Source: an uncultured delta proteobacterium
GTDB lineage: Bacteria > Desulfobacterota > Syntrophia > Syntrophales > Smithellaceae
Direction: 5' to 3'
DNA: 64,000 nucleotides
Assembly (NCBI GenBank): GCA_903907985.1
Contig: CAIVQG010000022.1
Coordinates: 1,538-65,537 of the forward strand
In this document: in pieces, positions 17,870-47,112 of the stretch
How positions within the stretch are numbered: the stretch's first letter is position 1
Layout of the letters: the number at the start of each line of letters is the position of its first letter
The notes under the pieces: generated by a model
Told to the model about the DNA's origin: nothing
Seen by the model: only the letters and a program-made list of their open reading frames with translations
Database searches by the model: none
Made by a program: the position numbers and the translations under genes

Positions 17870-17883
17870 TATTGATCTTATAA

Positions 17884-23354: not shown

Positions 23355-23357
23355 CCG

Positions 23358-24008: not shown

Positions 24009-24059
24009 TTTTTTTGATAAGAACTTGCTTTCATGGGAAGAAGAAACTAAAGGGGTCAA

Positions 24060-24159
24060 GTCTCTTCTTGGCTCATCTTTAGGGTTGTTATAGAATAATT
24101 TGCATAGATGAAACAAGGTCAGGCATCTGAACAACATGGCAAGACCTTTCGAGTTGTAG
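24060..24159 (+). repeat. third REP-like copy plus 7-codon stump of a second RAYT gene
   Basis: 24060-24088 AAGGGGTCAAGTCTCTTCTTGGCTCATCT matches the left repeat at 21161. 24136-24159 ATGGCAAGACCTTTCGAGTTGTAG matches the first 14 nt of the tnp gene (ATGGCAAGACCTTT) and then stops. Confidence 0.55.
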
Positions 24160-24320
24160 CCCTCTAAATTCATCGACCCTGACAATTTGGAAAGGGAGGT
24201 ATCAAACGGATGAATCTTTACATGATCTAGTAATACAAAAGTTCTGCGTTGACAATAGAACGATGAAAACGTCGCCGTATTTTTTTGACTATTTGATACC
24301 GGTGGTATATAATCGCTATT

Positions 24321-25442
24321 ATGAATATAAAGCGCCATGTTTATAGCCAGTTAGTCGATGACCTCCGACGGCCTGAAGTATCCATAATTCTTGGGTCCAG
24401 GCAAGTAGGCAAAACATTTCTGTTTAAAGAACTGGAAAGTGATGCCCGGGCCAGAGGATTGCGCACCCGTTATTATAATCTTGAACTACCCTACGATCTT
24501 CTGGCGTTTAATAAAGACGACAACGAACTGTTGCGCATGTTGACCACTGATTTGGATATAGTGTTTATTGATGAATTTCATTATTTGCCGAACGCATCCA
24601 AACTATTCAAGTCCATCTTTGATGCCGGTTCAAAAACAAAGATTGTTGCCACAGGGTCGTCAGCGATTGAGATGCACAAGCACCTGAAAGAAAGCCTTGC
24701 CGGCAGGCGTCTTGCTGTCCGGTTGATGCCGCTTTCCTTTGCCGAATATGCGCAACAGGGAAAAGATTGCCGGGGTTGATAAATAATGACGCGCCGGAGG
24801 AAAAAATCAGGCTTTTAAACGAAATCCTGGAAACATACATTCAAAAAGACATTAAATCATTAATCAGAGAAGAGAATATCAGGGCGTTTAACAGCTTGCT
24901 CTATTTACTGGCACAGCGTCAGGGTTCCTTGATTTCTCTGGGGGGGGGATTGCCAATGATATCGGGCTGACCGCGCGTACGCTGGAGCGGCACATTTCTA
25001 TTATGGAACAAACGTATATCTTGTATTCCGTTTTTCCTACGCAAGAAATATCGGCAATGAACTTAAAAAATCAAGAAAATTATATTTCTATGATCTGGGA
25101 ATAAGAAATGCTTTTTTACGTGATTTTAGCATGCCGGCGGAAAGAAGCGATATCGGTGTAATCCATGAATCTTTCGCGGCGCTTCAGCTTATCTCGCGCA
25201 TAAAACCTAATATGGAATTGAAATTCTGGCGTAACAAGGCCGGGCAGAAAATAGATTTTGTCCTGCTGAAAAACAGACAGCCGTTGCTGATTGAAATCAA
25301 AACGACAATTCATGAACCGAAGGTGCCGCAGGCAATTAAAATATTTATCAAAAATTATCCCGAGACGGCAGGGACGATTATTTATTCAACAGAACTTAAC
25401 GCGGATGTCGAATATTTATGTAAACAGGTAGCTTTCAGATAG
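24321..25442 (+). pseudogene. AAA ATPase (AAA_14 + DUF4143 type), multiply frameshifted
   Basis: P-loop GSRQVGKT and Walker B VFIDEF. The protein continues across at least three frame changes: near 24770, in the G9 tract 24940-24948, and near the T5 run at about 25035. Manual reading gives ..LANDIGLTARTLERHISIMEQTYILYSV|SYARNIGNELKKSRKLYFYDLGIRNAFL... Confidence 0.75.
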
Positions 25443-25516
25443 CTGGAATCATTATGTGAAGGCGAACTAATTGCAAATTGGTGAGCCGTATTTTAATATT
25501 TAATAAGGATGTTTTT

Positions 25517-26170
25517 ATGACAGAAGCAACAAAGCTCGCTTTATGTGGTTTGCGTGATCTTTCCCTGATCAAATGGTATATTATCCCTCTTTTGTCCTTA
25601 GTTTTTTATGTTTACACCAGGGAAATCAAAGAAGCGCGACGGAGTGGAGACTGGAACGCGGTACTGGCCGGTATGACGATTTTCGGCGTTGATTTTTTTA
25701 ACGAGACCTGGAACGGCTGGATTCTGCATTTTACCGGGCGCTCCGCTTTCTGGACAACTCCCGGTGATACCGCCTTGCGGACAATGGTTGGCTGGAATAT
25801 CGAGATCATGTTCATGTTTCTGCTGCTGGGCATTATCTACTATCACACTCTCTCGGATAGCAAGAAAGAGAAAATATTAGGCGTTCCCGAAAAATGGTTC
25901 TGGGCTATTGGCTACACTATCTTTTGCGTTTTTGTTGAATGTCTTTTAAACATCGGCGGACATCTGGTCTGGGAATATCCCATCTGGTATTTGTCCTTTA
26001 AAGGCATTTGGCTGATATTCCTGATCGGTTACTTCCACTTTTTCTGTTTTGCCATTTTAGTCATCAGCCTGAAAACAATGAAAGCTAAACTGGCGACCGT
26101 GAGTATTATTTATGCCGTGCCGTTGATAATGAACATCCTTGCCTTCGGTTTCTGGGGCTGGAGATATTAA
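25517..26170 (+). CDS. polytopic membrane protein, unknown function
   Basis: About 6 hydrophobic helices. ATG 25517 corresponds to the start of the duplicated fragment at 14758. Confidence 0.6.
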   Translation: MTEATKLALCGLRDLSLIKWYIIPLLSLVFYVYTREIKEARRSGDWNAVLAGMTIFGVDFFNETWNGWILHFTGRSAFWTTPGDTALRTMVGWNIEIMFMFLLLGIIYYHTLSDSKKEKILGVPEKWFWAIGYTIFCVFVECLLNIGGHLVWEYPIWYLSFKGIWLIFLIGYFHFFCFAILVISLKTMKAKLATVSIIYAVPLIMNILAFGFWGWRY

Positions 26171-26188
26171 TTTCATTTCGGAAGAAAA

Positions 26189-26243
26189 CACTATCTTTGT
26201 TGGTGGAGCCGGCAAAGATAGTGGGCAATGCCGGCTTTCTTTG
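26189..26243. terminator. bidirectional terminator region between convergent genes
   Basis: An 11-bp stem CACTATCTTTG/CAAAGATAGTG (26189-26223) overlaps stem AGCCGGC/GCCGGCT (26207-26236). T-rich tracts follow on both strands. Confidence 0.5.
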
Positions 26244-26247
26244 CGAG

Positions 26248-28242
26248 CTATTTTCTTAAAATAAATCTGCCCGCAAGCTTATCTTGTGGTGGATGCAAGT
26301 TAGGGCTCTGCTCAACGTTTAATGTTCTTGCCTCATCTTCAACTAAAGGCTTTATATACTCATAAATCTCCGCTATTGTTCTTTTCTCGTCTTGTAATGC
26401 CTTTAGAAAATAATAGGTAAATATACCATGCCTTTTTTCAGGAGATGAAGTGCTGATCTGACCTCCTTGCGTTGCGGTAAGCACTGCCATATTGCGTGAG
26501 ACGAAGGACGCATCTTTCACCATTACCAGAGGCCGTGCTCCTTTTGCTAAAACGCTCCTGCCGCCAGTGCCGGAAAAACAAGAATCAAGAAGAATGATGG
26601 TCTCATGTGTCTTCAAAACACCGAGTTTTTCGTAGAGCCTTTTCAAAGAATAGCCGGACGTGGCAAGATAATTGGGATCTCCGTCAAAAGGAACAATATA
26701 TGCTTCACCGGTTTTGGGTTCTGGTGCTCCATGTCCTGAATAATAAAAGATGATTCTACTATCACTCTTTACGTGGTTGGGGAGCCATCCCTCTATTGCT
26801 GTCTCGATTCTTGACTTTGTTGCTCGTTCATTGAGAATAAGAGCAATATTCCGTTCCGCAAAACCGAGCGCCTTTAGATATTCTTTCACAAGTTCTGCAT
26901 CGCTTACGGAATGATCCGATTTTGGTATTCCCTGATAATTTTCTATTCCGATGACGATGGCGATGTCGTTTGCCCGCGGTGCCATTTTAAAATCGGGAAT
27001 CCTGTTAATGTTTCCAATATCTACTTTCGTGGTAACAGGTACTGGTGCGGAACTTCGAGCAACTGACGCAGCAGCCCCGATACTGCGAAGGGCGAAACGT
27101 TCATTCGTGACATCATCGACGAGGACTGTATCCGTCAGGCGGATATTTTCGGCATCATGGTATTTTAATTTCCCTTCCACATGTATTTGATTTTTATGGC
27201 CCTGCATTGCCATCGCTTTTTCCCGCGGAACACTTATAAATACACTCTTTCCGATAAGAATTGCCGTAAAGCCTCTCTTGTCCGCATCGTAAGCGCCCAG
27301 CACAATCGGAGTTGTATAATCCTGCTGCCATTTGCTCATACGCTCTTCATATTCTCCAGTCGCTTCGAATTCCCCTTTCGTGAACGTATTTTTAACGGAC
27401 AACATGCGGGCATCATAGATAGTAATGATATTATTTTTTTTATCAATATTCAGCTCCCAGCCTTTACTGCTAAGATGTGTGGAACTCTTTTCATGTTTGG
27501 TCCGATCAGCGGCTGCGGAAGGACGGCTTTCTTCCCATGCTGAAATATCATGAAAAAACCTGTTTTGCATCCATGAGATGACCAGCGATTTCCCGTAGAA
27601 ATTTTCAATAAATCCATCGAACGAATCAAGCAGTTGCCAGGATGAAGTATCATAAAGAAGTACTTTATTTGCAGCACTGAACATAGATGGGTGATAGCGA
27701 TTCACCGCCATTAACTTTCCGTTGGGACTAAATTTCCCCAGCCATCCATGGAATTGCCGGATTGTTTCCCCGGAAGACGTATTTAAAATTGTAACCGTGG
27801 CGTCATTATTGGTTACTTCCGTGTAATTGGATATGCTGACCATTTTGCAACCGGTATCAAAGGAGATCTGTCCACCCCCGTAACTTTTAATGACTTGCTT
27901 TGTTTTCAAGTTGAAAAAGGTTAATAAACTATTGCCGTCAACAACCATAATGTCTTGATTTGGGCTGAAACAATAAGACGAGCCGCTTATTTTCTTTACT
28001 TCCTGCCATGTTACCGGTTCATAGACAATGGTGTTCCCCTTTTCATTTAGCACCAGCACCTCCCCTTGCGGGCTGAACGATGCAGAGAAACCATTCATAG
28101 TTTTAACTACACTGGCGTTTGAAATGGCTAAGATCACATCTTGGGCTTTCTGATCCTGGCCATTCTGAATTGCCCAGGCAGACGATGCGGCAAAAGTCAT
28201 CATGGCTATTAGAAATACACAAATTCTGTTCATGACTTTCAT
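26248..28242 (-). CDS. exported caspase-like (peptidase C14) protein with N-terminal beta-propeller-like repeats
   Basis: Signal peptide ..VFLIAMMTFAASSAWA. Repeated FSPxG/FSPNG strands. C-terminal caspase fold IAIVIGIENY..IIFYYSGHG (His)..IILLDSCFSG (Cys). Start ambiguous (28275, 28242 or 28233). Confidence 0.85.
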   Translation of the reverse strand: MKVMNRICVFLIAMMTFAASSAWAIQNGQDQKAQDVILAISNASVVKTMNGFSASFSPQGEVLVLNEKGNTIVYEPVTWQEVKKISGSSYCFSPNQDIMVVDGNSLLTFFNLKTKQVIKSYGGGQISFDTGCKMVSISNYTEVTNNDATVTILNTSSGETIRQFHGWLGKFSPNGKLMAVNRYHPSMFSAANKVLLYDTSSWQLLDSFDGFIENFYGKSLVISWMQNRFFHDISAWEESRPSAAADRTKHEKSSTHLSSKGWELNIDKKNNIITIYDARMLSVKNTFTKGEFEATGEYEERMSKWQQDYTTPIVLGAYDADKRGFTAILIGKSVFISVPREKAMAMQGHKNQIHVEGKLKYHDAENIRLTDTVLVDDVTNERFALRSIGAAASVARSSAPVPVTTKVDIGNINRIPDFKMAPRANDIAIVIGIENYQGIPKSDHSVSDAELVKEYLKALGFAERNIALILNERATKSRIETAIEGWLPNHVKSDSRIIFYYSGHGAPEPKTGEAYIVPFDGDPNYLATSGYSLKRLYEKLGVLKTHETIILLDSCFSGTGGRSVLAKGARPLVMVKDASFVSRNMAVLTATQGGQISTSSPEKRHGIFTYYFLKALQDEKRTIAEIYEYIKPLVEDEARTLNVEQSPNLHPPQDKLAGRFILRK

Positions 28243-28459
28243 CCTAAGAAATACAATGATCCTCAGTAACTCCATTTTGGAGATGGAATTATAATAAAGA
28301 AGGCCTTGTGCGTCAATTCAAAATGCAACCGACTAATGTATTTCTGAGAAGATGCCAAAGGGCAGGGGGAGCAATCGGCCAGAGACAATTTATTGCGCTT
28401 TGTTAACAGTTATTGTATGAAGTTATACCAATCTGATAGTCAAGGAGGGTTGTATATAG

Positions 28460-30034
28460 ATGAAATCCGTCATGGGAAGAATGATTCTTGTTTCTCTCCT
28501 TTTTGCTTTAATGCAGGCTTTCCCTGCTCAGGCGGCGCCGGAGCAGCGTTTGGCGCTGGTAATCGGCAATGCTGTTTACGGTTTTTCGCCCTTGAAAAAT
28601 CCCGTGAATGATGCTTCCGACATTGCCACATCCCTCCAGAAGCTTGGTTTTACAGTGATTCTCAAGAAAAACGTCAACATCAAAGAGATGGAAGCCAGCA
28701 TCGAGGATTTCGGCAATCGTCTGAAACGCGGCGGTGTTGGTCTTTTTTACTTTGCCGGCCATGGTCTCCAGGTGGGGGGTGTCAATTATCTTATTCCTGT
28801 CGGCGCCAAAATCGACAAGGAGTCAGACATCAAGTATGAAGCAGTGGATGCGGGGAAAATTCTTGATGAAATGGCCAATGCCGCCAACGGCTTTAATATC
28901 GTAATCCTTGATGCCTGCCGGGACAATCCTTTCCATCAGCAGTTCCGTTCTGTCAGCCGCGGTTTGGCGATTGTCGGCAGCGCTCCCAAAGGATCATACA
29001 TTTCCTATTCAACCTCTCCCGGCCAGGTGGCACTCGACGGTGATGGCCGCAACAGCCCTTTTGCCGCCGCATTAATAAAATACATGAAGGAACCCGGCTG
29101 GACTATAGAACAGGTTTTTAAAAACGTCCGTCATCGACTGAGTCAGGATACGTTAGGCAAGCAGGTGCCCTGGGAATTGTCGTCTCTGGAAGGCGATTTT
29201 TTCTTCATACCTGGCAACAAAAGTTCAGACTATTCCAGAGAATTATCCGATAGCAGAGAAACTATTGCAGCACGGACTAAACAATCAACCAAAGAAAGAT
29301 CTTTTTTGGAAGGGGGCAATACTTATAAAGACCCTGTTACCGACATGGAATTTATCCTGGTTCAAGGGGGATGCTTCCAGATGGGAGACAGCTTCGGTGA
29401 TGGCTGGGCTGATCAGGAAAAACCACTGCATGAAGTTTGTGTGGACAGTTACTACCTCGGCAAATACGAGGTGACCCAGGGGCAGTGGAAAAAGATCATG
29501 GGGACAAACCCGGCCCATTTCAAAGGCTGTGGAGAAAACTGTCCGGTAGAAAGTATAAGCTGGACGGATGTACAGAGCTTTATTGCGGAAATGAGCAATC
29601 AGAGCGGTCAGAAATACCGACTGCCCACGGAAGCGGAATGGGAATATGCCGCCCGTGAAGGCGGCAAAACGATAAAATGGGCGGGGACAAGCATCGAAAG
29701 CAGGCTGGACGAGTATGCGTGGCACGAGGCCAATACTGACGACAGGGTACGCCCGGTAGGGCAAAAAAAACCGAATGCGCTGGGTTTCTATGACATGTCG
29801 GGAAATGTCTGGGAATGGACGGGGGATATATATTCAGAAACATATTATCAGAAAAGCCCCCGGGAGAATCCCCGCGGTGCTGAAGAAGGTAAAAGGCGGA
29901 CATTACGCGGTGGCAGTTGGATGGACAAGACCAGCAGTGTACGTACTTCGATTCGCTATTTCTTTTGGGAGCATCAGCAAGGTTTTAGAAATGTCGGGTT
30001 ACGCCTGGTAAAGCAGATAGGCAATTCCAACTGA
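28460..30034 (+). CDS. exported caspase-like (C14) domain fused to an FGE-sulfatase (SUMF1-like) domain
   Basis: Signal peptide LLFALMQAFPAQA. LALVIGNAVY..LFYFAGHG..NIVILDACRDNPF. C-terminal YLGKYEVTQGQW..YRLPTEAEWEYAAR..DMSGNVWEW..LRGGSW. Confidence 0.85.
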   Translation: MKSVMGRMILVSLLFALMQAFPAQAAPEQRLALVIGNAVYGFSPLKNPVNDASDIATSLQKLGFTVILKKNVNIKEMEASIEDFGNRLKRGGVGLFYFAGHGLQVGGVNYLIPVGAKIDKESDIKYEAVDAGKILDEMANAANGFNIVILDACRDNPFHQQFRSVSRGLAIVGSAPKGSYISYSTSPGQVALDGDGRNSPFAAALIKYMKEPGWTIEQVFKNVRHRLSQDTLGKQVPWELSSLEGDFFFIPGNKSSDYSRELSDSRETIAARTKQSTKERSFLEGGNTYKDPVTDMEFILVQGGCFQMGDSFGDGWADQEKPLHEVCVDSYYLGKYEVTQGQWKKIMGTNPAHFKGCGENCPVESISWTDVQSFIAEMSNQSGQKYRLPTEAEWEYAAREGGKTIKWAGTSIESRLDEYAWHEANTDDRVRPVGQKKPNALGFYDMSGNVWEWTGDIYSETYYQKSPRENPRGAEEGKRRTLRGGSWMDKTSSVRTSIRYFFWEHQQGFRNVGLRLVKQIGNSN

Positions 30035-30143
30035 TTCCCACCGGTGTTTTTAAATCCGTTTGGCGTTTCCTGGCAGCACTAATAGTTATGTTTTTTACAG
30101 TAGATTGATTTTAATCTATTCCAAAGAACGGAGGAACAATTCA

Positions 30144-33100
30144 ATGAACATTTCATGGCGAAAATGGTTAGGGTCGTTTCTTACTGTTATCTCCCTTCTT
30201 CTGTTTTCACTTCCGGCTTTTGCCGGCTATGCGGATGAGTGCACCGATCAGAATACCTGGAAGCCGGATTATCAGAAAGGCCAGCCTGTCGAGATTAAAA
30301 ACGGCACAGTTTGCATCGGTCCGGGTGAATATAATTACGACTTCGTCAACATCCACAGTAAAGGCAAGCTGATTTTCAAGGATGCTAATATCGATTTCTG
30401 GGCCAAATCTATTTTGGTGGAAAAGGATGGCAGCTTGATTGCCGGATCAGAGGATTTCCCTATAAGCAGCAAAATAACCATCCATCTTTACGGAAAAGAA
30501 GAGGGGCCGGGCATAACCTGTAAGACAACAAGCGACGGGAACGATCCCGACTTGATTTGCGGAGTCCCGCGGACTCAATGGTCAAACGGTGACCAAAACA
30601 CCTACAAACTGCCATCGGGTATCGAAGACTATTTTTACGCATACAAAAAGCTTCCCACCGACGATGATTTGGCGGAACGGGCCTACTTTGGCCGCAAGGT
30701 GCTGGCTGTTTCCTACGGCGGGACCATCCAGATGTTCGGAAAGAAAGGAGCCACCTACGAGAAAGATTTAAGCTCATTGAACCCCATGGAAGCCGATGCC
30801 TCCAGGGTATTCTTTTACAATAAGCCTCTGACCAGTGGTGCTTCCCATTTTGACGTTGACCGGGTCATCGATTGGGAAAAGGGGCATCCCGTACTTTTCA
30901 AAGGTAAGGGCTCCGGAAAATACGAGGTCCGGAAGCTAAAGGAGATCACCGTTTCCAGAGACACGAATGACTTTCACACCAGTATTATTATTGAAGAGGG
31001 GTTGACTTCGGACATCAGTTCGGAAGGGGGCTATATCGTCCTTCTCCACAACTCCGGTACAAGCTGGGCAAGGCTGGCGGACAATCTGCCCGCTCAAACC
31101 GCACCACAGAACCTTACCCTGGACAGGGATGTTGACTGGCAGAAAAATGATAAGATCGTGGTGACGACGACGGACTACCTGCCCGGTCATTCCGAGGAGT
31201 TGACCATTGGCGATAAAACAGATGGAAGAAAAATCACCATTAATAATGAGATTAAATATCCACACAACGGCAGGAAGTATTCTCTGGCCGGGCATAATAT
31301 CCCCGATCGCATGAAGAATGCCGGATTTCGTATTGAGGAAGTGGAAACAAGGGCGGCCGTTGCCCTGCTCACGAGGAATATTCGGATTGTTTCTGAAGGC
31401 GATAGTTATCAGACGCAACTCCCGGGCGACAGTTATTTCGGCGGCCATACAATTATCCGCCAGGGGTTCAACAAATTTCAGATGCAGGGGGTAGAGTTCC
31501 AGAAGCTTGGTCAGGGCGGTCGCATGGCCCATGCGCCCGTCAATTTCCATTTAACGCGGGAAGTTCCGGACGGAACCTTTGTCAAAGATTGTTCGATCAA
31601 CGAGTCGATGACCCACTGGATCGAACTGAGGGGAGCACAGAAGGTTCGCCTGGAGAGAAATGTCGGCTGGAAATCAATCGGTCACGGATATTATCTTTCC
31701 GACGGCACCGAGGCGGAAAATGCCATCATTGCCAATATCGGCATCAATGCCCGGGCCGCTGTGGACAGTGATCAAAATCCCCGCAAAGTCCCCGGTGTCA
31801 TGGCAATGACTTCCAATGAAACGCCCCCTCCCGGAGCGCAACTCCAGCAGTACGCAAGCGACATCATGCATCCCTCCGTGTTTCAGATCACGAACGCCTG
31901 GAATACGTTCGATCACAATATGGCGGTGGGCGCCGGAACGTGCGGAGCGTGTTACTGGATCGTGCCTTCCCGGATAAGCGGCCTTTCGAGTGACATGAGT
32001 TGGTCGGGTTACGCCGGCATTCAGAATCCCGGAGTAAAGCGCGATCAGCCCTATGGCAAGGCACCGCTGAAATCTTTCCGCGGGAACTTCTGCTCCACAG
32101 CCCAGTATTCGCTGATCACTGTCGGCGACACGGCTACGTGCAACGGCGTTGTCATGGATTTGCACGATGGGAACAAGAGTTACAAACTGCAGCCGATTCC
32201 CAATAAGTTCGCCCAGAGCTATTTTGACCAGAAACCCACACTGTATCCGGATACCAGTAATTTCGCCAATTACACACCGGCGCTGTGCGACGGCAAGGCA
32301 TGTGATCAATCGGTCTGCCTCCAGGGCAATACCGATAAATGTCCGGTCAGCGTCATCGATTCCTACACATCGTCTTTCCACTGGGCGCAGCAGAATTTTG
32401 CGGCGATCTGGCTGCGGGCCAACTGGTTTCTGGTGACCGACAGCGCACTGACCGATGTGCTCAACGGCGGATTGACGATGGTGTCGGGCGGCAGCTACGA
32501 TCAGGTCATCAACGGCTACTGGGCCCTGACGCGGAACAGCGTCTTTATCGGAAACACGCAGCCCTGGGATCCGTCGAACAAGCAAACCCCCGGCAACGCC
32601 TATGCGTCACCGGCCGGTCCTTTCAATACATACCCAAACGGCCTGGCCTGCGCCTATTCACCGGACAGAGGTTACTGCCTGTCCAAGGCGGAGGGGATTT
32701 CCATGCCAATCGATACGTTTGGCGTGTATCAGCGGCTCTATAATATTTACGACGGTCCTGTTTACCAGGAGAATAACGCCTATCTGCAGATCAGGAAGCT
32801 CCCCGTGGATAATTGCGGCAAAGGCCAGTGCAACAGCCAGTATATGTACGGCTCGGGATTCCGTGCGCTCAGCATTCCCAGGGCCAAGGAGGACCCGTAT
32901 AAAGGACAGTGCATCCTGCCTAACGCAGCCATCGGCTGGAAACAGCCCAACGGGTTTTACTATCCCCCCGCTTTCCACTCGCGGAATCTCTATTTCGACA
33001 AGGTGGACCTGCGCCACTATATCATTGTGCCGCTCTTTAAACCGGGCACAGCCGAAGTCAATGAAAACTGGGTCGAGCGCGACTACTGCTACTATCCGGG

Positions 33101-34343
33101 GATAAAATCCGAACTCTTTGCCAAAGACTTTACCGATGTGGATCGTCAGACGGAACTCAACGACAACGACGGCTCGCTTGCCGGGCTTGCCGGCGCCAAG
33201 AGCCTTCCCTATTCGGATTTCGAAGGTACCATCGCGGTTAACAAGGACAAATTCTTTCTGGCGCCGACCCTGACCATGGAATGCGGTTCCGATCAAACCT
33301 GTTTTCAGGCGCCTTTCGACTATGTGACGGCGGTCGTTTACCCCAACGAGTTCAAGCCCGGTGCCGGGGATGACTATTGCAAGGACAACACCTGGTGCAA
33401 TTCGTGCGATCAGCGCAACTGTTACGGCGTGCCTATTTACCGGCAGTATTACACCGCCGAGGAGGAGAAGGAAGGAAAGAAAAAAGATCCCGGGCAAAGT
33501 ATCCGCATGATGGGAGCGGGAATCTGGCAGCGCAGTACCCTGATTGCCAACCTTGGAAAATACTATATCGACACAGCCGTCAGCAGGGACACCCAGGTTA
33601 AAGGAACACCACGCTACGGGGATCCGACCAAGATTTTTCACAACCTCAATGTCTTCGAAAAGAACAAGAGCTACAACTTTTTCCTGCTGTACGCCAAACC
33701 GTCTACGCGCGTGACCTTCCAGATATATGTCGGCATGGATCCAAATTTTTCCAGCACCGCCAATGTCCGCATGGTAAGGGTGGGCACAAAAGTTAAGGAT
33801 GGCGAAGATGAAGTCGTTATTCTGTGGGGAAACAAGTTGAATTTTACTCCCGTGGATTTCTGGCCGACCAACTGGAGCAGGGAATATAAGAGCGACAAGG
33901 GCATTCTGGAAGTTACCATGGATATGGGATTTGGCCAGGGCAAGGACGACGCGACCAAAAAGCTTGCCGATGACTTCGGCAACAAGGCGAAAAAAGAAAC
34001 CTGCAAACCCAAATCTTTCTGCAGGTGGGATACCGGTCTCAATAAGTGCTGTTCGGCGGACAACAAAAATGATTGTGACGACTCTGTCTGCAGCTGGGCA
34101 AACAAGGCCCTTGACTGCCCCAGCGGCGGCTGCATGGGATTCAAGATAACCTTTCCGGACAAATTTGAAGCCAGTGATATAACGGGCGGGGCAAACCGGC
34201 CCGATACCGAGCCCTATCCCGCCAAAGACTGGAGCGTCGGCTGGAAATATGCCGATAAAATATATGACGGAGACCTCAATTCCTGCACCTATTCCGATAT
34301 GAACAAACCGGAGCAGGTAACGCCTGATTTATGGAAAGAGTGA
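30144..34343 (+). CDS. giant secreted Cys-rich G8-domain / CEMIP-TMEM2-like beta-helix protein
   Basis: GGAGGA RBS and signal peptide LLLFSLPAFA. G8-like segment TWKPDYQKGQPVEIKNGTVCIGPGEYNYDFVNIHSKGKLIFKDANIDFWAKSILVEKDGSLIAGSEDFPISSKITIHLYG. GRMAHAPVNFHL...VGWKSIGHGYYLSDGTEAEN resembles the GRYPIHFHL...GH.FF.EDG.E..N core of CEMIP/TMEM2 (from memory). The ORF track start at 30060 was rejected. Confidence 0.8.
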   Translation: MNISWRKWLGSFLTVISLLLFSLPAFAGYADECTDQNTWKPDYQKGQPVEIKNGTVCIGPGEYNYDFVNIHSKGKLIFKDANIDFWAKSILVEKDGSLIAGSEDFPISSKITIHLYGKEEGPGITCKTTSDGNDPDLICGVPRTQWSNGDQNTYKLPSGIEDYFYAYKKLPTDDDLAERAYFGRKVLAVSYGGTIQMFGKKGATYEKDLSSLNPMEADASRVFFYNKPLTSGASHFDVDRVIDWEKGHPVLFKGKGSGKYEVRKLKEITVSRDTNDFHTSIIIEEGLTSDISSEGGYIVLLHNSGTSWARLADNLPAQTAPQNLTLDRDVDWQKNDKIVVTTTDYLPGHSEELTIGDKTDGRKITINNEIKYPHNGRKYSLAGHNIPDRMKNAGFRIEEVETRAAVALLTRNIRIVSEGDSYQTQLPGDSYFGGHTIIRQGFNKFQMQGVEFQKLGQGGRMAHAPVNFHLTREVPDGTFVKDCSINESMTHWIELRGAQKVRLERNVGWKSIGHGYYLSDGTEAENAIIANIGINARAAVDSDQNPRKVPGVMAMTSNETPPPGAQLQQYASDIMHPSVFQITNAWNTFDHNMAVGAGTCGACYWIVPSRISGLSSDMSWSGYAGIQNPGVKRDQPYGKAPLKSFRGNFCSTAQYSLITVGDTATCNGVVMDLHDGNKSYKLQPIPNKFAQSYFDQKPTLYPDTSNFANYTPALCDGKACDQSVCLQGNTDKCPVSVIDSYTSSFHWAQQNFAAIWLRANWFLVTDSALTDVLNGGLTMVSGGSYDQVINGYWALTRNSVFIGNTQPWDPSNKQTPGNAYASPAGPFNTYPNGLACAYSPDRGYCLSKAEGISMPIDTFGVYQRLYNIYDGPVYQENNAYLQIRKLPVDNCGKGQCNSQYMYGSGFRALSIPRAKEDPYKGQCILPNAAIGWKQPNGFYYPPAFHSRNLYFDKVDLRHYIIVPLFKPGTAEVNENWVERDYCYYPGIKSELFAKDFTDVDRQTELNDNDGSLAGLAGAKSLPYSDFEGTIAVNKDKFFLAPTLTMECGSDQTCFQAPFDYVTAVVYPNEFKPGAGDDYCKDNTWCNSCDQRNCYGVPIYRQYYTAEEEKEGKKKDPGQSIRMMGAGIWQRSTLIANLGKYYIDTAVSRDTQVKGTPRYGDPTKIFHNLNVFEKNKSYNFFLLYAKPSTRVTFQIYVGMDPNFSSTANVRMVRVGTKVKDGEDEVVILWGNKLNFTPVDFWPTNWSREYKSDKGILEVTMDMGFGQGKDDATKKLADDFGNKAKKETCKPKSFCRWDTGLNKCCSADNKNDCDDSVCSWANKALDCPSGGCMGFKITFPDKFEASDITGGANRPDTEPYPAKDWSVGWKYADKIYDGDLNSCTYSDMNKPEQVTPDLWKE

Positions 34344-36091
34344 GGAACTGCTGTCACCGATCAATGAAGAAAAGATTTTTCATGGAAACAAAGAAGTCTC
34401 GCCACGGTGTCTGCGTAATACTAATTGCTTTTTGCATGGGCATAGCGGCGCTGGCGATTTTTTCCGCATTCCCGATCGAAGCGCGCTCAACCGGTACAAT
34501 CTCTGGTGTAGTATTCGACGAGAGGGGACCGGTAGTCCAGGCGCGGGTTCGTATTCAGGGGTCAGAGAATGTGGTTGTGACGGACGGGGCCGGCCGTTTT
34601 GTTCTGTCCGGCGTTCCTGCCCAAAGAGCTTTCAACGTCAGCGCCTGGAAGGAAGGATACTACAGCGCGCTTCTCAAGGATGTAAGAGCCCCGAAAGAAG
34701 GGACTCGCCTGTTTCTGGTACGTTACCAGATAAACGACAACCCGCACTATGAATGGATTCCTCCCGAGGGCGCAAAAGGCAGCTGTGCGGAGTGCCACCC
34801 TGCCGTTACTGAAATGAGCCTTAACGACGCTCACCTGAAAGCGGCGGTCAATCCCCGCTTTCTCACTATGTATTACGGAACGGATATAGAGGGTAAACAA
34901 AGTCTCCCCACGCGCTATGAAAAAGGAACGGCCTTCAGCCTCTGGGGCAACACCACCGTGCCGCGTCGTCCCGACGGTTCAAAAGCTTATTACGGCCCCG
35001 GATTTCAGCTCGATTTCCCCGGCGCAGTCGGAGATTGCAGTGCGTGCCACATTCCCGGTACGTCCATTGGAAAAAACGTGGACCCGGGATCGGTGAAGGG
35101 CGCCAATCGGTATGGCGTGCATTGCGATTTCTGCCACAAGGTAGGCAGTGTTCGACTTGACCCCAAATCCATGCTGCCTTTCGCGAATGTTCACGGCGTC
35201 CACACCATGAAGGTCAAGCGTCCCTTCACGGACGATCCGAAAAGACCCCAGCTGTTCTTTGGCACCTTCGAGGATGTCAACGCGTCCGAAGGAGACACAA
35301 ATCTTCCTCTGATCAGGGAGAGCAAGTACTGTGCTCCTTGTCACTACGGGGGGTTCTGGGACACCCTTGTTTATAACTCCTACGGAGAATGGTTGCAGAG
35401 CCCCTATGCCGATTCCCAATCGGGAAAGGCCAGAACCTGCCAGGAATGTCACATGCCTTCGCCCACCCTTTACAAAGGAAAGCCGATTACAAATATTGCG
35501 CCGGGCAAAGGCGGGATAGAGCGCGCCGCCGCCTCCATCCATAACCACAACATGACCGTGGACGCCGAGCTGTTGCGGAATTCTCTGACAATGGTAGCGT
35601 CAGCAAGGATGAACAAGGACAAGGTGCTGGTTGCAGTAAAATTGATCAACGACAAAACGGGGCACCATATTCCCACTGATTCACCGCTGCGCCATTTGAT
35701 CCTGCTGGTTGAGGTGAAAGATGAAAAGGGCAATTTGTTGCGGCAGGAAAGCGGACCTGTATTACCGCAGTGGTGTGGTGACAGGAAAAATATCAAGGGC
35801 CATTATGCCGGTCTTCCGGGAAAGGCTTACGCGAAGCTGCTCAAAGAAAAGTGGACGGATGTTTTCCCGACTGCGGCCTATTGGAATCATACCGAACTGG
35901 TGAGTGATAACCGTATTGCAGCTTTTGCCGAGGATTCAACCTCCTTCGAATTTATGCCGCCGAAAAAAGGGAAGGCCATAATCACAGTTTCTCTCCTTTA
36001 CCGCCGGGCATTTATTGAGCTGATGGAGCAAAAGAAGTGGGATGTTCCGGATATCATGATGGCGCAGCAGATCGTTGTTATTAAGAGGTAA
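34331..36091 (+). CDS. multihaem (5 x CXXCH) c-type cytochrome with N-terminal carboxypeptidase-regulatory-like domain
   Basis: N-terminal anchor/signal VCVILIAFCMGIAALAIF. GTISGVVFDERGPVVQARVRIQG..TDGAGRFVL (CarboxypepD_reg-like). CAECH, CSACH, CDFCH, CAPCH and CQECH. Also a GHHIPT motif. Start is 34331 (13-nt overlap with the G8 gene), 34364 or 34382. Confidence 0.85.
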   Translation: MERVRNCCHRSMKKRFFMETKKSRHGVCVILIAFCMGIAALAIFSAFPIEARSTGTISGVVFDERGPVVQARVRIQGSENVVVTDGAGRFVLSGVPAQRAFNVSAWKEGYYSALLKDVRAPKEGTRLFLVRYQINDNPHYEWIPPEGAKGSCAECHPAVTEMSLNDAHLKAAVNPRFLTMYYGTDIEGKQSLPTRYEKGTAFSLWGNTTVPRRPDGSKAYYGPGFQLDFPGAVGDCSACHIPGTSIGKNVDPGSVKGANRYGVHCDFCHKVGSVRLDPKSMLPFANVHGVHTMKVKRPFTDDPKRPQLFFGTFEDVNASEGDTNLPLIRESKYCAPCHYGGFWDTLVYNSYGEWLQSPYADSQSGKARTCQECHMPSPTLYKGKPITNIAPGKGGIERAAASIHNHNMTVDAELLRNSLTMVASARMNKDKVLVAVKLINDKTGHHIPTDSPLRHLILLVEVKDEKGNLLRQESGPVLPQWCGDRKNIKGHYAGLPGKAYAKLLKEKWTDVFPTAAYWNHTELVSDNRIAAFAEDSTSFEFMPPKKGKAIITVSLLYRRAFIELMEQKKWDVPDIMMAQQIVVIKR

Positions 36092-36120
36092 GAGTTTGTT
36101 GGAATACGGAGATTAATTTT

Positions 36121-36621
36121 ATGAATCATTTATTTTTGCCTATGATTGCGGTGGCCGGTGCGTTGATCCATGTCTATCTGGATCGCCGGCAGCGTTCGGC
36201 CCACAGAGTGCTGGAGATAATTCTGGTGTGGTTTCTGTCCGTATTTTCAGGAATTTCCAGCATAGTGGCTTTCTTCGGCCACACATTTGCCGCCGTTAAA
36301 ATTGCGGCATACATAGGATGGCCGCCGGGCAGCCCCTTTCAGTTTGAAGTGGCCGTAGCCAATCTGGCCATCGGCGTGCTGGGCATCTCCTGCATCTGGC
36401 TGCGCGGAAACTTCTGGACGGCTACGGTCATGGCCGGAGCGGTTTTCGGGTTGGGTGCGGCCTTCGGACACATCCGGGATATAATGGTAAATAACAACTA
36501 TGCTCCGGGCAATGCGGGTGTGATTTTATATCTGGATATTGGTGGCCCCGTCCTGATGATAGTTCTTCTGACCATTTTTAAAATACTGGAAAAAAGAGAA
36601 CTACACAATAAATCCTGCTAG
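36121..36621 (+). CDS. small polytopic membrane protein
   Basis: 166 aa, about 5 hydrophobic helices. Its 3' end is duplicated at 37274-37360. Confidence 0.55.
   Translation: MNHLFLPMIAVAGALIHVYLDRRQRSAHRVLEIILVWFLSVFSGISSIVAFFGHTFAAVKIAAYIGWPPGSPFQFEVAVANLAIGVLGISCIWLRGNFWTATVMAGAVFGLGAAFGHIRDIMVNNNYAPGNAGVILYLDIGGPVLMIVLLTIFKILEKRELHNKSC
36507..36594 (+). repeat. direct repeat copy 1 (3' end of the membrane-protein gene)
   Basis: GGGCAATGCGGGTGTGATTTTATATCTGGATATTGGTGGCCCCGTCCT.. is about 80% identical to 37274-37360. Confidence 0.7.
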
Positions 36622-37677: not shown

Positions 37678-38367
37678 ATGGCAAATGAAATAATTCCATA
37701 TCTTGAGATGTGTCAGCGCGAAGGTGTAAGCCTTCAGCGTGGCATGAATTATCGACTCAAAGGTAATCATTCAGTCATTCTCATGTCTCTTCGTCCTGGT
37801 GCGCCATACACTGATAGGATTGATGATGATGGTACAACTCTAGTTTATGAAGGACACGATATCCCCCGTTCTTCTCAACATGCGGACCCTAAGTCTTTTA
37901 ATCAACCGGAGCATTCTCAATACGGGCATCTTACCGAGAACGGTAAGTTTCACAAGTCGGCACAGGAGTTTAAAAATGGACTTAGGCCGCCAGATCGAGT
38001 TCGTGTATACGAGAAGATCAAACCTGGTATTTGGTCATACAATGGGGTTTTTCATCTTGTTGATTCTTGGCAAGAGCAGTGTAATGGACGCAGTGTTTTC
38101 AAATTCAAACTCACTGCGGTTGAAGGGGAGGAAGACTTCTCTATTCCTGTTCCAGCACTCTCAGTAACAAGGCGTGTAATTCCCACTGTGGTCAAACTAG
38201 AAGTTTGGAAAAGAGATGGAGGGAAATGTACAAAGTGCGGAGTTACTGAAGATCTTCACTTTGATCATATTATACCATGGTCAAAAGGTGGCTCATCAAA
38301 CACTGCTGACAATATTCAATTACTTTGTGGAAAACATAATTTGGCAAAGCATGATAAAATTGAATGA
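37678..38367 (+). CDS. HNH endonuclease with N-terminal SRA/PUA-like domain (candidate modification-dependent type IV restriction enzyme)
   Basis: C-terminal HNH CTKCGVTEDLHFDHIIPWSKGGSSNTADNIQLLCGKHNLAKH. The N-terminal pattern HSVILMSLRPGAPYTDRIDDDGTTLVYEGHD ... VRVYEKIKPGIWSYNGVFHLVDSW...VFKFKL parallels the SRA (YDG) domain layout. Confidence 0.75.
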   Translation: MANEIIPYLEMCQREGVSLQRGMNYRLKGNHSVILMSLRPGAPYTDRIDDDGTTLVYEGHDIPRSSQHADPKSFNQPEHSQYGHLTENGKFHKSAQEFKNGLRPPDRVRVYEKIKPGIWSYNGVFHLVDSWQEQCNGRSVFKFKLTAVEGEEDFSIPVPALSVTRRVIPTVVKLEVWKRDGGKCTKCGVTEDLHFDHIIPWSKGGSSNTADNIQLLCGKHNLAKHDKIE

Positions 38368-38486
38368 ATATCCAACCATGCAATCCACGCGGACCGTCGT
38401 TCCGCCGGCCGGTGATCGCCACGTTGTACGTTTCAAAGAGTAATCGGCAATTCTGACAACTGCTCACTAAGGATAATCACATTATA

Positions 38487-39620: not shown

Positions 39621-39955
39621 AGTCGAAAGATAGAGATGCTGGTATTGAAGAGAGGCCTTGACAAAACCATATGAAACCGGCAATTCTGTGTCCGAATCTC
39701 TGCTTTCAGAAAGGTAATAAGCATACCAATTGAAAGCGGTATTTTTTGAGATGGCAAAACCATCGTTAGCATTAGTATTATTCTTATATTATTTTATATT
39801 TTTCTGCCCGTATTTTTGTGTTATTATAATATAAAGTTCAACTTAGTGATGCATCCTCCCCCTTCCCGTTTTGAAAATTTCTGATCCCGCTCTTTTGACA
39901 GGATAGTTTTTGGAAACTATTTAACCCAGTCAACAAGATTGAAAGGAGATCTCTT

Positions 39956-45900: not shown

Positions 45901-47112
45901 CTAAGGCTTTTTAATAACCTCGTTCGCGCTACCGAGTGCTTCCGCTCCCCGCGCCGTGTTATCTTTCAGTTGGAATGATTTAAGCTCTCCCGACAAGGGA
46001 TCGAATTCAATCGAGTGTGAATTGTTCTGGAACGCACCATTAGTGATCTCCAAAGCGCCGATTCTTCCGCATTGCATCACTTCTATATAATTTGTCGACA
46101 CAAGGGTGTCCTTTGTGATCTCCAATTTACATATGGCCGGTATTCTGTAATAAAGCCCTTCGACGCTGGCTGTTTTTTTATTCTGGTCTTTAACCTGGGG
46201 GCTGCAATTGCTGATCGTGTAGGACAATTTATTTTCCTCTATCCACGTCTGAAATTGTTTGCCCATAGCATCATTATTGCCTGCATTACCAAACCATTTT
46301 GTAAAAGGGGAACTTTCCAGCGTAATATCACCAAAACTGTCACATTTCCCTGACTCGATGATTAACGGCTTCCGATATTGAATAGTGAGATGTTTATCCA
46401 GTTCGACGAGGCGCTCCTTCGTTTTCCTGATGACATTCTCAATATCCGCAATCCGTTCCGGCATGCCGTCCCTTTTTTCGACCAGTTGAACCTCCGCCTC
46501 ATACAGTTTCCGTTTCATGGTGCTCATGTGCAGCAGAAGAAAATCATACTCGGCCAGAATGTTTCTTGTCTCCGCATTGCAGATACCCTTACCCGGTGTT
46601 TCTGATCCTTGCTGTGCTCCGCTTAATTGAAACGATCTGCTGCCGGCAAGCAGCATTAATGCCCCGCCGAGAGACGGCAGCTTGAGCGGCAAAACGTTGG
46701 AGGCCACGTCGGTCAGAAGGGTGACGCCGCTTTTAATTATATCCACCGTCGAATCTTTCGCGTCATAGCTTATGCCCGCCAGCATTCCATTGTTAATGGT
46801 AATTTTCGCCAGAGGGATCGTCTTGGATAGACTGCTCAAAGAAGATGAATCAATCAGATATGTCCCCTTCGCTTTGTCGGGAACCACTTTTTGCTCAATG
46901 GCGGCATCCGTAATTTCGATTGCGCCGCGGCTGTCCTTCAGGCGAAAAGTCATCACATAGGAAAGCTCCGTGGCGGGAAGGTGGTAGGCTATTCCCACTG
47001 CGGGAACGACATCCTCGGCCGGCCGGGAAACGATTTTTGTCGTACATGATGCCATAAGACCGGCAGTAACCAGCAAGGCAACGGATATCTTATATAATTT
47101 GCTGTCCTTCAT
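45901..47112 (-). CDS. probable lipoprotein, unknown function
   Basis: Signal sequence ending LVTAGLMASC. 403 aa. No catalytic motif recognised. Confidence 0.5.
   Translation of the reverse strand: MKDSKLYKISVALLVTAGLMASCTTKIVSRPAEDVVPAVGIAYHLPATELSYVMTFRLKDSRGAIEITDAAIEQKVVPDKAKGTYLIDSSSLSSLSKTIPLAKITINNGMLAGISYDAKDSTVDIIKSGVTLLTDVASNVLPLKLPSLGGALMLLAGSRSFQLSGAQQGSETPGKGICNAETRNILAEYDFLLLHMSTMKRKLYEAEVQLVEKRDGMPERIADIENVIRKTKERLVELDKHLTIQYRKPLIIESGKCDSFGDITLESSPFTKWFGNAGNNDAMGKQFQTWIEENKLSYTISNCSPQVKDQNKKTASVEGLYYRIPAICKLEITKDTLVSTNYIEVMQCGRIGALEITNGAFQNNSHSIEFDPLSGELKSFQLKDNTARGAEALGSANEVIKKP

Follow-up and report, generated by a model that had tools for sequence, protein, structure and literature searches.

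Two kinds of described protein come closest to the products of the locus analyzed here. For TMEM2, a G8 protein, mutations that affect activity map to the lectin-like domain, and the catalytic site and the activity are themselves unsettled (PMC10206443). For cytochromes with the PHC fold, published work draws links with ExtKL-type electron transfer and with AvECN, an archaeal nanowire cytochrome (PMC11976967). MccSep, a polysulfide reductase with a five-haem cap and an Ig-like stem (10.1101/2025.11.18.688581), is reported as a homotetramer, and a partner subunit is not reported (PMC11976967; 10.1101/2025.11.18.688581). In agreement with the preliminary description of this DNA, we found no G8-cytochrome system in the literature searched, and the pairing of a G8 protein with a pentahaem cytochrome appears undescribed. 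The reading we favor, with slightly less than even confidence, is that the two genes are a co-inherited and co-adapted cassette whose products most likely form one extracytoplasmic complex, with the cytochrome as its electron-transfer subunit.

The host of the window (the whole 64-kb stretch of DNA analyzed) is a Smithella-like anaerobe. Five neighboring genes had been proposed to form one exported module. All five open reading frames and their domains are present, with coordinates that agree (Table 1), and, judged by eye from the N-termini, each of the five products seems to be exported or bound to the membrane. The block had also been described as GC-rich, which holds over the G8 and cytochrome genes (0.50-0.54, against ~0.46 for the window) and fails for the caspase genes (0.43-0.48); two further 2-kb bins also reach 0.51-0.52.

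Table 1. Features of the window, with the evidence behind each assignment.
Feature	Coordinates	Strand	Evidence
Caspase-fold protein with N-terminal beta-rich region; lineage-specific insertion	26248..28275	-	Absent from related loci
Caspase-fold (C14) protease with FGE-sulfatase-type domain, exported; probable accessory	28460..30034	+	Pfam, neighborhoods
TMEM2/CEMIP-like G8 protein, core gene 1, 1399 aa, Sec-exported	30144..34343	+	Pfam, PDB, AF2/Foldseek, tree, RBS
Pentahaem c-type cytochrome, core gene 2	34331..36091 (start 34331, 34364 or 34382)	+	Pfam, AF2, Foldseek, adjacency
DUF6790 small polytopic membrane protein; adjoining, no conserved partner	36121..36621	+	Pfam, neighborhoods
DUF4831-like lipoprotein	45901..47112	-	Related-locus comparison

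The giant G8 protein is a genuine TMEM2/CEMIP homologue, and the resemblance first noticed in its motifs (GRMAHAPVNFHL and VGWKSIGHGYYLSDGTEAEN, both present in the translation) extends over its whole length. It matches the Pfam families G8 (60.5 bits, cutoff 22.9) and CEMIP_beta-hel (123.4 bits, cutoff 27.3). PDB searches matched it to TMEM2 (8c6i) with an E-value of 9e-24 for the single sequence and 8.8e-45 for the family profile. A Foldseek search with the AF2 model (pLDDT 84.7) also ranked 8c6i first (E 3.9e-33 over 1243 columns), followed by phage capsule depolymerases, GH110, GH87 and K1 lyase. The protein contains 34 Cys, and GGAGG, the ribosome-binding site of its gene, lies 7 nt 5' of the ATG at 30144. 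No redox cofactor motif is evident in it except an invariant CGACYW, which also occurs in the G8 clade without cytochromes.

The cytochrome carries exactly the five CXXCH motifs listed previously and a CarboxypepD_reg domain (36.5 bits, cutoff 32.3). An N-terminal hydrophobic helix or signal (residues 4-28 in the AF2 model, pLDDT 84) is followed by this transthyretin-like sandwich, the five-haem domain and, at the C-terminus, an Ig-like sandwich. The best Foldseek match of the model is 5ze8 (E 1.2e-14, TM 0.67), and the predicted structure has the PHC/c552/ExtKL fold. The proposed overlap of the start codon with the G8 gene was not established: the ATG at 34331 would overlap the TGA at 34341-34343, no clear Shine-Dalgarno sequence favors any of the three candidate ATGs, and the N-termini of homologues vary, some of which carry a lipobox. 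Across the three candidate starts the gap lies between -13 and +38 nt, and the spacing is nonetheless tight.

The pair recurs as a unit. A five-CXXCH homologue (E <= 1e-178) lies directly downstream, at -126 to +64 nt, in 24 of the 24 informative loci of one G8 clade (genome loci with enough downstream DNA). Eight more pairs occur on metagenome contigs, and one further pair was found with independent gene calls (L161; the same pair is on contig L162). Hosts of the pair are syntrophs and Geobacter relatives. The adjacency recurs without exception across an entire clade and holds in every case down to protein identities of 42-48%, and the stretch between the two genes contains no terminator-like site. 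In one locus (L017) there are two tandem pairs, i.e. the pair was duplicated as a unit. All cytochrome-linked genes fall into one clade of the midpoint-rooted G8 tree, and the cytochromes linked to G8 are likewise united in a single clade, whose internal topology is broadly similar to that of the G8 tree. Between the window and L016, the flanks are 81-86% identical and the G8 body and 5' three-quarters of the cytochrome gene 47-78%; the low-identity region coincides with the rise in GC. Relative to L016, the cassette center is a divergent allele, and the alignment shows exchange of the cassette as a unit. An ordinary depolymerase, secreted to act on polysaccharides and lying beside a cytochrome gene by chance, would be in keeping with the depolymerases, GH110, GH87 and K1 lyase that follow TMEM2 among the fold matches. 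Such a coincidence is highly improbable and already disfavored, given the invariant adjacency, the duplication and exchange of the pair as a unit, the congruent trees and the site remodeling that correlates with linkage (see below).

In these neighborhoods, the conserved module is smaller than the five-gene block. Both caspases match Peptidase_C14 (69.7 and 135 bits) with the quoted His/Cys dyads, the FGE-sulfatase domain scores 166 bits, and the small membrane protein after the cytochrome belongs to DUF6790 (E 5e-50); the beta-propeller repeats ascribed to one caspase gave only a sub-threshold match (22 bits, cutoff 57). None of 159 related loci contains a homologue of this propeller-caspase; in L001 and L004 the sequences that flank it here are contiguous, and compared with these two loci it is an insertion of 2.2 kb. 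DUF6790 homologues are sporadic, adjoining the pair in only four loci (L001, L004, L016 and L025). The caspase-FGE protein is found full-length 0-3 kb from the pair in 10 genome loci, in three different arrangements, and as partial or truncated caspase-domain matches in L008 and four metagenome loci (L080, L081, L083, L084). It is absent from the deeper linked clades (L012, L013, L017, L018, L020, L025-L028, L039, L077) and from L011, although the flanks of L011 are complete. Neighborhoods make it a plausible accessory in a Syntrophaceae subclade only. A true FGE carries its Cys pair in the GGSW...R segment; no Cys is present in this segment here, so we read the domain as non-catalytic. The DUF4831-like lipoprotein lies directly upstream of G8 in eight related loci and is displaced in the window and L004. 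Its recurrence, the closeness that the caspase-FGE gene keeps to the pair through its three arrangements and the exported look of all five products speak for a single five-gene system. We regard this as very unlikely; for the propeller-caspase and DUF6790 it is largely refuted by the distributions above, and the caspase-FGE gene is missing from the deeper clades.

Across the loci compared, the cytochrome family pairs generally with large exoproteins. In sister clades the partner is a Sortilin/BNR propeller in 48 loci (-153 to +160 nt apart; loci L090-L159 and L160, with homologues that include an Anaerolineae MAG) or, in four loci with spacing within the same range, a third type of 870-930 aa. 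We found no description of the Sortilin/BNR modules in the literature searched. The haem-1 motif follows the partner: CXXCH in 32 of 32 G8-type cytochromes, CXXCK in all four of the third type, and H, K or M at the last position in the BNR type. Catalytic haems, e.g. in NrfA, typically have a Lys ligand, and CXXCK or CXXCM at haem 1 of the sister clades would fit a cytochrome that is itself an MccSep/NrfA-like reductase, with a large partner that only binds or brings a substrate of insoluble or polymeric nature (sulfur, polysulfide, mineral). Its fold matches c552 of T. tepidum, and its nearest characterized relative by family model is ExtKL/MccSep, a polysulfide reductase (10.1101/2025.11.18.688581). 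However, the match to NF040886 (ExtKL) is weak (39.8, cutoff 250) and spans haems 4-5 and the stem. The G8-linked clade has CXXCH at all five haems and conserves six additional His (H151, H247, H387, H389, H428, H429), so every haem has a candidate distal ligand and could be bis-His. C465 is the sole conserved non-haem Cys, so the Cys/Sec pair of MccSep cannot both be present. We therefore consider an enzymatic cytochrome distinctly unlikely.

Co-adaptation of the favored cassette is seen in the G8 protein. The ancestral His/Tyr/Glu ladder (YPVHFH, LHG, YLEDG) is shared by TMEM2. Its residues Y464, H467, H496 and E519 are kept in TMEM2 and in 49 of 49 resolvable unlinked G8s, and lost in 27 of 27 resolvable cytochrome-linked ones; the window protein has A464, N467, H469, R496, Y517 and S519. 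Ladder loss goes with cytochrome pairing and, among the sequences compared, is confined to the linked clade. The proposed CEMIP-like action on glycans is weakened, since these most conserved positions of TMEM2 and other bacterial homologues are replaced and the lectin-like domain of TMEM2 is missing. One may expect the same losses of catalytic-looking residues if a non-catalytic G8 protein binds the cell surface or matrix and merely holds the cytochrome in place for electron transfer outside the cell or between species, the ladder change being a loss of activity. An exopolysaccharide matrix serves Geobacter as an anchor for cytochromes, and the hosts include its relatives and syntrophs. The large partners of the cytochrome family have no structural relationship to one another (beta-helix, propeller, unknown fold), so a generic scaffold role fits as well as a catalytic one, and the PHC fold is tied to ExtKL-type transfer and AvECN (PMC11976967). 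We nevertheless hold a passive anchor to be unlikely. Conservation of the G8 body in the linked clade is very high: Cys, Trp, Arg and Asp are invariant at dozens of positions, and H435, H514 and E523 are still present. This exceeds the usual need of a passive scaffold. In addition, R496, E494 and Q1055 are each fixed (28/28), which suggests that a functional site was gained and speaks against decay. No covariation was seen between the clade-specific Cys residues of the G8 protein and the cytochrome.

As a best guess, the two products would form an electron-transfer complex outside the cytoplasm, whose target would be a polymer or otherwise insoluble. We infer that the TMEM2-like beta-helix would be the large subunit that recognizes the target, and that the cytochrome would be the electron-transfer subunit and probably also a membrane or lipid tether, through its N-terminal helix in the window and the lipobox of some homologues. 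Electrons may be taken up from carriers in the periplasm and passed along the five haems to the polymeric or insoluble target held by the beta-helix. The rebuilt ladder would make chemistry or docking at that face depend on the cytochrome and no longer on the ancestral site. No other cytochrome and no quinol dehydrogenase are encoded in the window. As the hosts are strict anaerobes, oxidative cleavage of a polymer is unlikely.

Compared with known systems, the cytochrome resembles NrfH/NapC/NirT and MtrC/OmcA, to which it has marginal Pfam matches, in being a multihaem subunit encoded beside, and apparently serving, a larger extracytoplasmic partner. It differs from the NrfH/NapC/NirT type in scoring below the cutoffs (Cytochrom_NNT 23.0, cutoff 24.1; TIGR03507 18.9, cutoff 209) and in the beta-sandwich spacer between membrane helix and haems, a layout that speaks against the oxidation of quinol at the membrane. 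With the PHC family (T. tepidum c552 5ZE8, Geobacter ExtKL/MccSep, Gsu2801) it shares the five-CXXCH alpha-helical cap followed by an Ig-like beta-sandwich, but adds the N-terminal helix and CarboxypepD_reg sandwich. It falls far under the ExtKL cutoff, has no Sec and one conserved non-haem Cys, unlike ExtKL/MccSep, and has an obligate partner, the large exoprotein encoded upstream, unlike MccSep. The Sortilin-Vps10/BNR modules have the identical cytochrome architecture (40-54% identity), with the cytochrome tightly downstream, on the same strand, of an exported protein of 0.8-1.2 kaa. Their partner is a beta-propeller instead of a beta-helix, CXXCK or CXXCM is frequent at haem 1, and C465 is mostly Gly. 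The G8 protein shares with TMEM2/CEMIP (HYBID, KIAA1199; 8c6i; PF10162 and PF24606) a beta-helix along the whole length with N-terminal turns made by G8, the motifs FGGH, GQxx..P.xFH and GHGxxL.DG.E..N, and an insertion at the identical point of the helix. TMEM2 is a type II membrane protein with lectin-like (GG) domains, whereas the window protein is Sec-exported and soluble, lacks these domains, has Y464, H467, H496 and E519 replaced together with its entire clade, and has a cytochrome partner.

The five open reading frames of the locus lie where the preliminary description placed them, and every motif that it quoted was found in their translations (table below). The sequence GGAGG stands 7 nt 5' of the G8 start codon. 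For the cytochrome, three ATGs are candidate starts (34331, 34364 and 34382). The N-termini of its homologues are variable and converge only at the hydrophobic segment, and neither the alignment nor inspection of ribosome-binding sites singled out one of the three. Because the start is ambiguous, we give the spacing from the G8 stop as a range, from -13 to +38 nt. The block as a whole had been described as GC-rich; this holds for the G8 and cytochrome genes (0.50-0.54) but not for the caspase genes. The cytochrome gene is the only CXXCH-bearing ORF in the 64-kb window. Scans for promoters and terminators returned nothing exceeding shuffle expectation. Over the locus, the closest relatives (MAGs of Smithella and Syntrophaceae) are 87-90% identical in nucleotide sequence. 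An exact-sequence look-up of the window cytochrome returned no record.

Genes of the locus in window coordinates, followed by two examples of propeller-cytochrome modules on related contigs
Feature	Position	Strand	Length	Pfam evidence
Propeller-caspase	26248-28275	-	675 aa	Peptidase_C14 and a sub-threshold propeller match
Caspase-FGE protein	28460-30034	+	524 aa	Peptidase_C14; FGE-sulfatase (166 bits)
G8 + CEMIP_beta-hel protein	30144-34343	+	1399 aa	G8 (PF10162), 60.5 bits against a gathering score of 22.9, residues 39-119; CEMIP_beta-hel (PF24606), 123.4 bits against a cutoff of 27.3
Cytochrome	34331-36091	+	586 aa	CarboxypepD_reg and weak multihaem matches
DUF6790 protein	36121-36621	+	166 aa	DUF6790
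Propeller-cytochrome module, contig L158	106-3672 and 3921-5630			
Propeller-cytochrome module, contig L160	6998-9469 and 10001-11740			

The giant protein is a true homologue of TMEM2 and CEMIP. The likeness had been noticed by eye, and the HMM, profile and Foldseek comparisons all bear it out. The single G8 sequence matched the TMEM2 ectodomain (8c6i) with an E-value of 9e-24, and a family profile built from 18 sequences matched it with 8.8e-45. An AF2 model of residues 28-1227 (pLDDT 84.7, pTM 0.87) retrieved the same structure as its top Foldseek match (E 3.9e-33 over 1243 columns, TM 0.49/0.46), followed by phage capsule depolymerases, GH110, GH87 and K1 lyase. The bacterial family is large: candidate scoring covered 978 clusters, and 479 species genomes encode a relative. 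Its conservation is strong, and Cys, Trp, Arg and Asp are invariant at dozens of positions. Some members outside the clade of the window carry RTX-type calcium-binding repeats (PF00353), which fits an extracellular location.

To describe the neighbourhood of these proteins, we analyzed 79 genome loci around G8 homologues using our own ORF calls and phmmer. A midpoint-rooted neighbour-joining tree of the G8 proteins splits cleanly into a clade linked to the cytochrome and a cytochrome-less remainder. The adjacency seen in the window recurs throughout the linked clade: in all 24 loci with downstream DNA, a homologue with five CXXCH motifs follows on the same strand, between -126 and +64 nt from the G8 gene. 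The only members of the clade without a cytochrome (L015 and L019) are on contigs that end at the G8 gene. One locus (L017) carries two tandem G8-cytochrome pairs, and independent gene calls with Pfam labels confirmed a further pair (L161), which is also found on a second contig (L162). The linked clade is hosted by Smithella, Syntrophus, Syntrophaceae, Syntrophobacteraceae, Desulfobacteraceae and Geobacter MAGs, and the cytochrome-less G8 genes by Acidobacteriota, Burkholderiales, Binatia, Thiocapsa, Methylotetracoccus and others. Canonical G8 homologues also occur in cultured organisms, such as Thiocapsa roseopersicina DSM 217, Paludibaculum fermentans, Methylotetracoccus oryzae and Sorangium. 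At the cytochrome-less loci we found no CXXCH-rich neighbour and no universal partner, only lineage-specific neighbours. For instance, a gene for a BBP7-type outer-membrane beta-barrel (Pfam E 6e-51) flanks G8 in Burkholderiales and Lysobacterales (L037, L038, L043, L050, L052, L054 and L067), a hint that the outer membrane is where canonical G8 proteins are displayed, or the barrier across which they are exported. Tandem G8 paralogues occur in L042, L054 and L071.

Comparison of the window with a related locus, L016, showed that the two differ by a cassette exchange. The flanks are 81-86% identical (6777-14739, 28284-30529, about 35660-36604 and 38468-39705) and include the caspase-FGE gene, the first ~390 nt of the G8 gene, the 3' ~430 nt of the cytochrome gene, the DUF6790 gene and a Fer4 gene. 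The stretch from about 30530 to 35660, comprising the body of the G8 gene and the 5' three-quarters of the cytochrome gene, is only 47-78% identical, with the G8 proteins at 48% amino acid identity in this divergent middle. With similar flanks and a divergent centre, the central cassette differs as a unit between the two loci, and the divergent stretch coincides with the rise in GC content.

Other differences lie outside the cassette. Some 13.5 kb of the window (14740-28283) are absent from L016, with genes for a SpoIIE/HAMP/Cache phosphatase, an IF-2B-like protein, a class II aldolase, a polytopic membrane protein and the propeller-caspase. This segment also contains an IS200-like Y1 transposase fused to a DnaA_C HTH (21214-22176) and an IstB-like fragment (24321-24779), and its membrane-protein gene (25478-26170) has a partial copy at the opposite edge (14826-15032). 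Downstream, a gene for an SRA (SAD/SRA) and HNH endonuclease of the modification-dependent restriction enzyme kind (37678-38367, + strand) falls in a region whose counterpart in L004 is a shorter gap. A 1815-bp contig binned as 'uncultured Lentisphaerae' (L007, CAIQLG010000314.1) encodes residues 630-1233 of the window G8 protein at 100% identity. As the other close relatives are all Smithella or Syntrophaceae, this contig is probably mis-binned, and its source may be the population that yielded the window.

We compared the G8 proteins of the linked clade column by column with 53 cytochrome-less sequences. A ladder of His, Tyr and Glu residues that is invariant in the latter is replaced in the former (table below): the window has APVNFH, LRG and YLSDG where the family has YPVHFH, LHG and (Y/F)LEDG.

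Ladder positions (window G8 numbering); TMEM2 states are taken from the alignment of the family profile with 8c6i
Position	Cytochrome-less G8	Cytochrome-linked G8	TMEM2
464	Y, invariant	S/A	Y (YPVHFH)
467	H, invariant	N in 24/28	H
469	H, invariant	H in only 20/28	H
496	H, invariant	R in 28/28	H (VHG)
517	Y, invariant	F/V/Y	F (FFLEDG)
519	E, invariant	A/S in 28/28	E

Among the resolvable G8 genes analysed, loss of the ladder coincides exactly with the presence of a cytochrome partner: the ancestral pattern (YHH, H, YE) is found in 49/49 genes without a cytochrome and a remodelled one in 27/27 genes with it. H435, H514 and E523 are retained in both clades. Among the replacements, E494, R496 and Q1055 are fixed and C1053 mostly so; the site looks rebuilt rather than decayed. 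The positions 435, 467/469, 496 and 517/519 are spaced by 21-32 residues and fall on successive strands of the AF2 model (408-412, 439-442, 466-469 and 489-491 in model numbering), which is consistent with their lying on successive rungs of one face of the helix. Residues 430-527 of the window protein align with about 440-545 of TMEM2 in 8c6i; conservation between TMEM2 and the 53 cytochrome-less homologues is highest at FGGH, YPVHFH, VHG and GHxFFLEDGxE. Judging from this conservation, the His-rich ladder is a candidate active or metal site of TMEM2 and CEMIP. In the linked clade, the rebuilt face could be either a new reaction site or a docking site. That the G8 protein is purely a scaffold for extracellular electron transfer we regard as possible but rather unlikely.

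The cytochrome model (pLDDT 84.1, pTM 0.81) comprises an N-terminal helix (residues 4-28, replaced by a lipobox in some homologues), a transthyretin-like sandwich (37-111), the haem domain and a C-terminal beta-sandwich (403-568). Its best Foldseek match is Thermochromatium tepidum c552 (5ze8; E 1.2e-14, target TM 0.67), which the sequence profile also picks up, weakly. On the evidence of the model, the protein has the pentahaem fold of the PHC family, in which c552, ExtKL and Gsu2801 have been grouped (PMC11976967), with five c-type haem motifs in a helical cap and a C-terminal Ig-like sandwich. A relationship between c552 and the archaeal nanowire cytochrome AvECN has been suggested by Baquero et al. 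(cited in PMC11976967). The five CXXCH motifs are invariant across 21 G8-linked homologues, in which H151, H247, H387, H389, H428 and H429 are also conserved; these His could render every haem bis-His in the G8-linked clade. Two other cytochrome types were considered and rejected. A quinol dehydrogenase of the NapC/NirT/NrfH type was dismissed because Cytochrom_NNT scored 23.0 against 24.1 bits, on residues 328-381 only, and because the 37-111 sandwich separates the membrane helix from the haem domain. The OmcA/MtrC decahaem type was dismissed on a TIGR03507 score of 18.9 against 209.3 and on the five haems; PF22113 gave a borderline match (30.8 against 30).

The shared fold raises the question of whether the cytochrome is itself the catalyst. 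ExtKL is the same protein as MccSep, which reduces polysulfide and combines a five-haem cap with an Ig-like stem; haem 2 is of the His/Cys type, and the enzyme has a catalytic Sec (10.1101/2025.11.18.688581). The same preprint compares MccSep with c552 in structure and in the arrangement of the haems. The window cytochrome scored 39.8 bits against the MccSep/ExtKL model NF040886 (NCBIfam), short of the curated cutoff of 250. The only conserved Cys outside the CXXCH motifs is C465 (in WCG), and the gene has no in-frame TGA. With a single conserved non-haem Cys, a Cys/Sec pair of the MccSep type is impossible, and we consider an MccSep-like catalytic role for the cytochrome improbable. An intermolecular disulfide between C465 and the clade-specific C1053 of the G8 protein was also rejected, as the loci without one Cys are not those without the other (C1053 is missing in L026 and L028, C465 in L077). 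In L026 a seven-CXXCH protein (8499-10187) follows the pentahaem gene, and ResB/CcsA-like cytochrome c biogenesis genes are found downstream of the cytochrome in L086, L094 and L096.

For the reciprocal view, we scanned metagenome contigs with the cytochrome profile and retained 61 loci with upstream DNA. A G8 gene lies upstream in only 8 of them. In 48 the neighbour is a Sortilin-Vps10/BNR Asp-box propeller (0.8-1.2 kaa) that lies between -153 and +160 nt from the cytochrome, and in four (L137, L153, L155 and L157) it is a third type of protein, directly upstream, of 870-930 aa with no Pfam match. In the cytochrome tree, the G8-linked sequences form one clade and those linked to the third protein another, and the propeller-linked sequences fill the rest. 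As sampled, every type of partner comes with a cytochrome lineage of its own, which diverges along with it. The first haem motif is CXXCH in 32/32 G8-type cytochromes and CXXCK in 4/4 of the third type, and its ligand in the propeller type is H (18), K (17) or M (9). C465 is present in 31/32 G8-type cytochromes; elsewhere the position is mostly Gly (Cys in only 11/44 of the BNR type). Taken together, the partner survey and the tree indicate that the sampled cytochrome family, of at least 1836 clusters, is built to operate alongside a large exported protein. The propeller-cytochrome modules, a sister family of the G8-cytochrome pairs, are found within L090-L159 and in L160, with one named homologue (P0217) from an Anaerolineae MAG, and some of their propellers have a C-terminal TM anchor.

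The two caspase-fold genes upstream differ in their relation to the pair. Both match Peptidase_C14 (69.7 and 135 bits against a cutoff of 21.4), with the His/Cys dyads YYSGHG/LDSCFSG and YFAGHG/LDACRDN intact, as first described. The propeller-caspase had been counted as part of the module; we found no homologue of it among 159 related loci, and it sits in a 2.2-kb stretch missing from L001 and L004, whose flanks are contiguous. It is a lineage-specific insertion. In 10 genome loci the caspase-FGE gene lies 0-3 kb from the pair; matches to its caspase domain in L008 and four metagenome loci (L080, L081, L083 and L084) are partial or truncated. All these loci fall within one Syntrophaceae subclade. 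The gene is found divergent upstream, co-directional upstream or co-directional downstream of the cytochrome, which suggests that its linkage to the pair may be selected. Modification of the G8 protein by the FGE domain was rejected: the G8 protein has no C/SxP/AxR target motif, and the domain lacks the catalytic Cys pair, as the segment RGGSWMDKTSSVRTSIRY contains no Cys. We take the active-site pair to follow the GGS(W/Y) motif, as in human FGE. A defence-system reading of the caspases was also set aside, as PADLOC returned only generic caspase matches. The DUF6790 gene stands beside the pair only in L001, L004, L016 and L025. A DUF4831-like lipoprotein is encoded directly upstream of G8 in eight loci (L003, L006, L014, L019, L021, L030, L083 and L084), is displaced in the window to 45901-47112 (- strand) and is relocated in L004 too; in Syntrophaceae it may serve the module as an additional accessory.

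The two exported proteins are encoded, inherited and duplicated as a unit, whose central part differs blockwise between the window and L016; the type of partner and the cytochrome lineage diverge together; and remodelling of the ancestral site in the partner is confined to cases in which the cytochrome is present. We infer that the G8 protein and the cytochrome form a complex, in which the pentahaem protein would wire electrons to or from whatever the beta-helix binds. Candidate targets are a matrix polysaccharide, the surface of a partner cell, a mineral or sulfur. In a more ambitious joint reading, the ladder would be a real metal-dependent or redox active site, in TMEM2 and CEMIP too, that anaerobic Desulfobacterota have traded for a pentahaem wire; we hold this to be clearly unlikely. 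If true, it would define a new class of extracytoplasmic enzymes, driven by a cytochrome and directed at a polymer or an insoluble substrate, and the BNR-propeller-cytochrome pairs would be a parallel solution. We give the pair only a minority chance of being such a new enzyme class.

Apparently undescribed so far, the G8-cytochrome module is widespread and strictly conserved. It occurs in syntrophs (Smithella, Syntrophus and Syntrophobacteraceae) and in relatives of Geobacter, in which extracellular electron exchange is poorly understood. The bacterial family also offers comparative leverage on animal TMEM2 and CEMIP, as the ladder provides a short, testable list of candidate active-site residues, and its pattern may hint at a metal or redox step in the chemistry of the family. 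In the searchable literature we found no description of bacterial G8-cytochrome or propeller-cytochrome pairs, and nothing bearing on the pairing in work on BNR with multihaem proteins or on Smithella EET.

Both proteins depart from their best-known relatives. TMEM2 has a lectin-like insertion of about 200 residues that has no counterpart in the bacterial G8 profile; at this point the window protein carries an unrelated insert of about 100 aa, and Pfam finds no GG or lectin domain in it. Mutation of R265, D273 or D286 in the lectin-like GG domain of TMEM2 is reported to reduce hyaluronan depolymerisation; TMEM2's own depolymerase activity is disputed (PMC10206443). MccSep combines a distal Cys on haem 2 with a Sec/Cys in a stem loop, whereas the window cytochrome cannot hold both. 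The G8 protein and the cytochrome each come from known families, and what is apparently new is their pairing; a multihaem cytochrome that serves a large extracytoplasmic partner is in itself a known arrangement.
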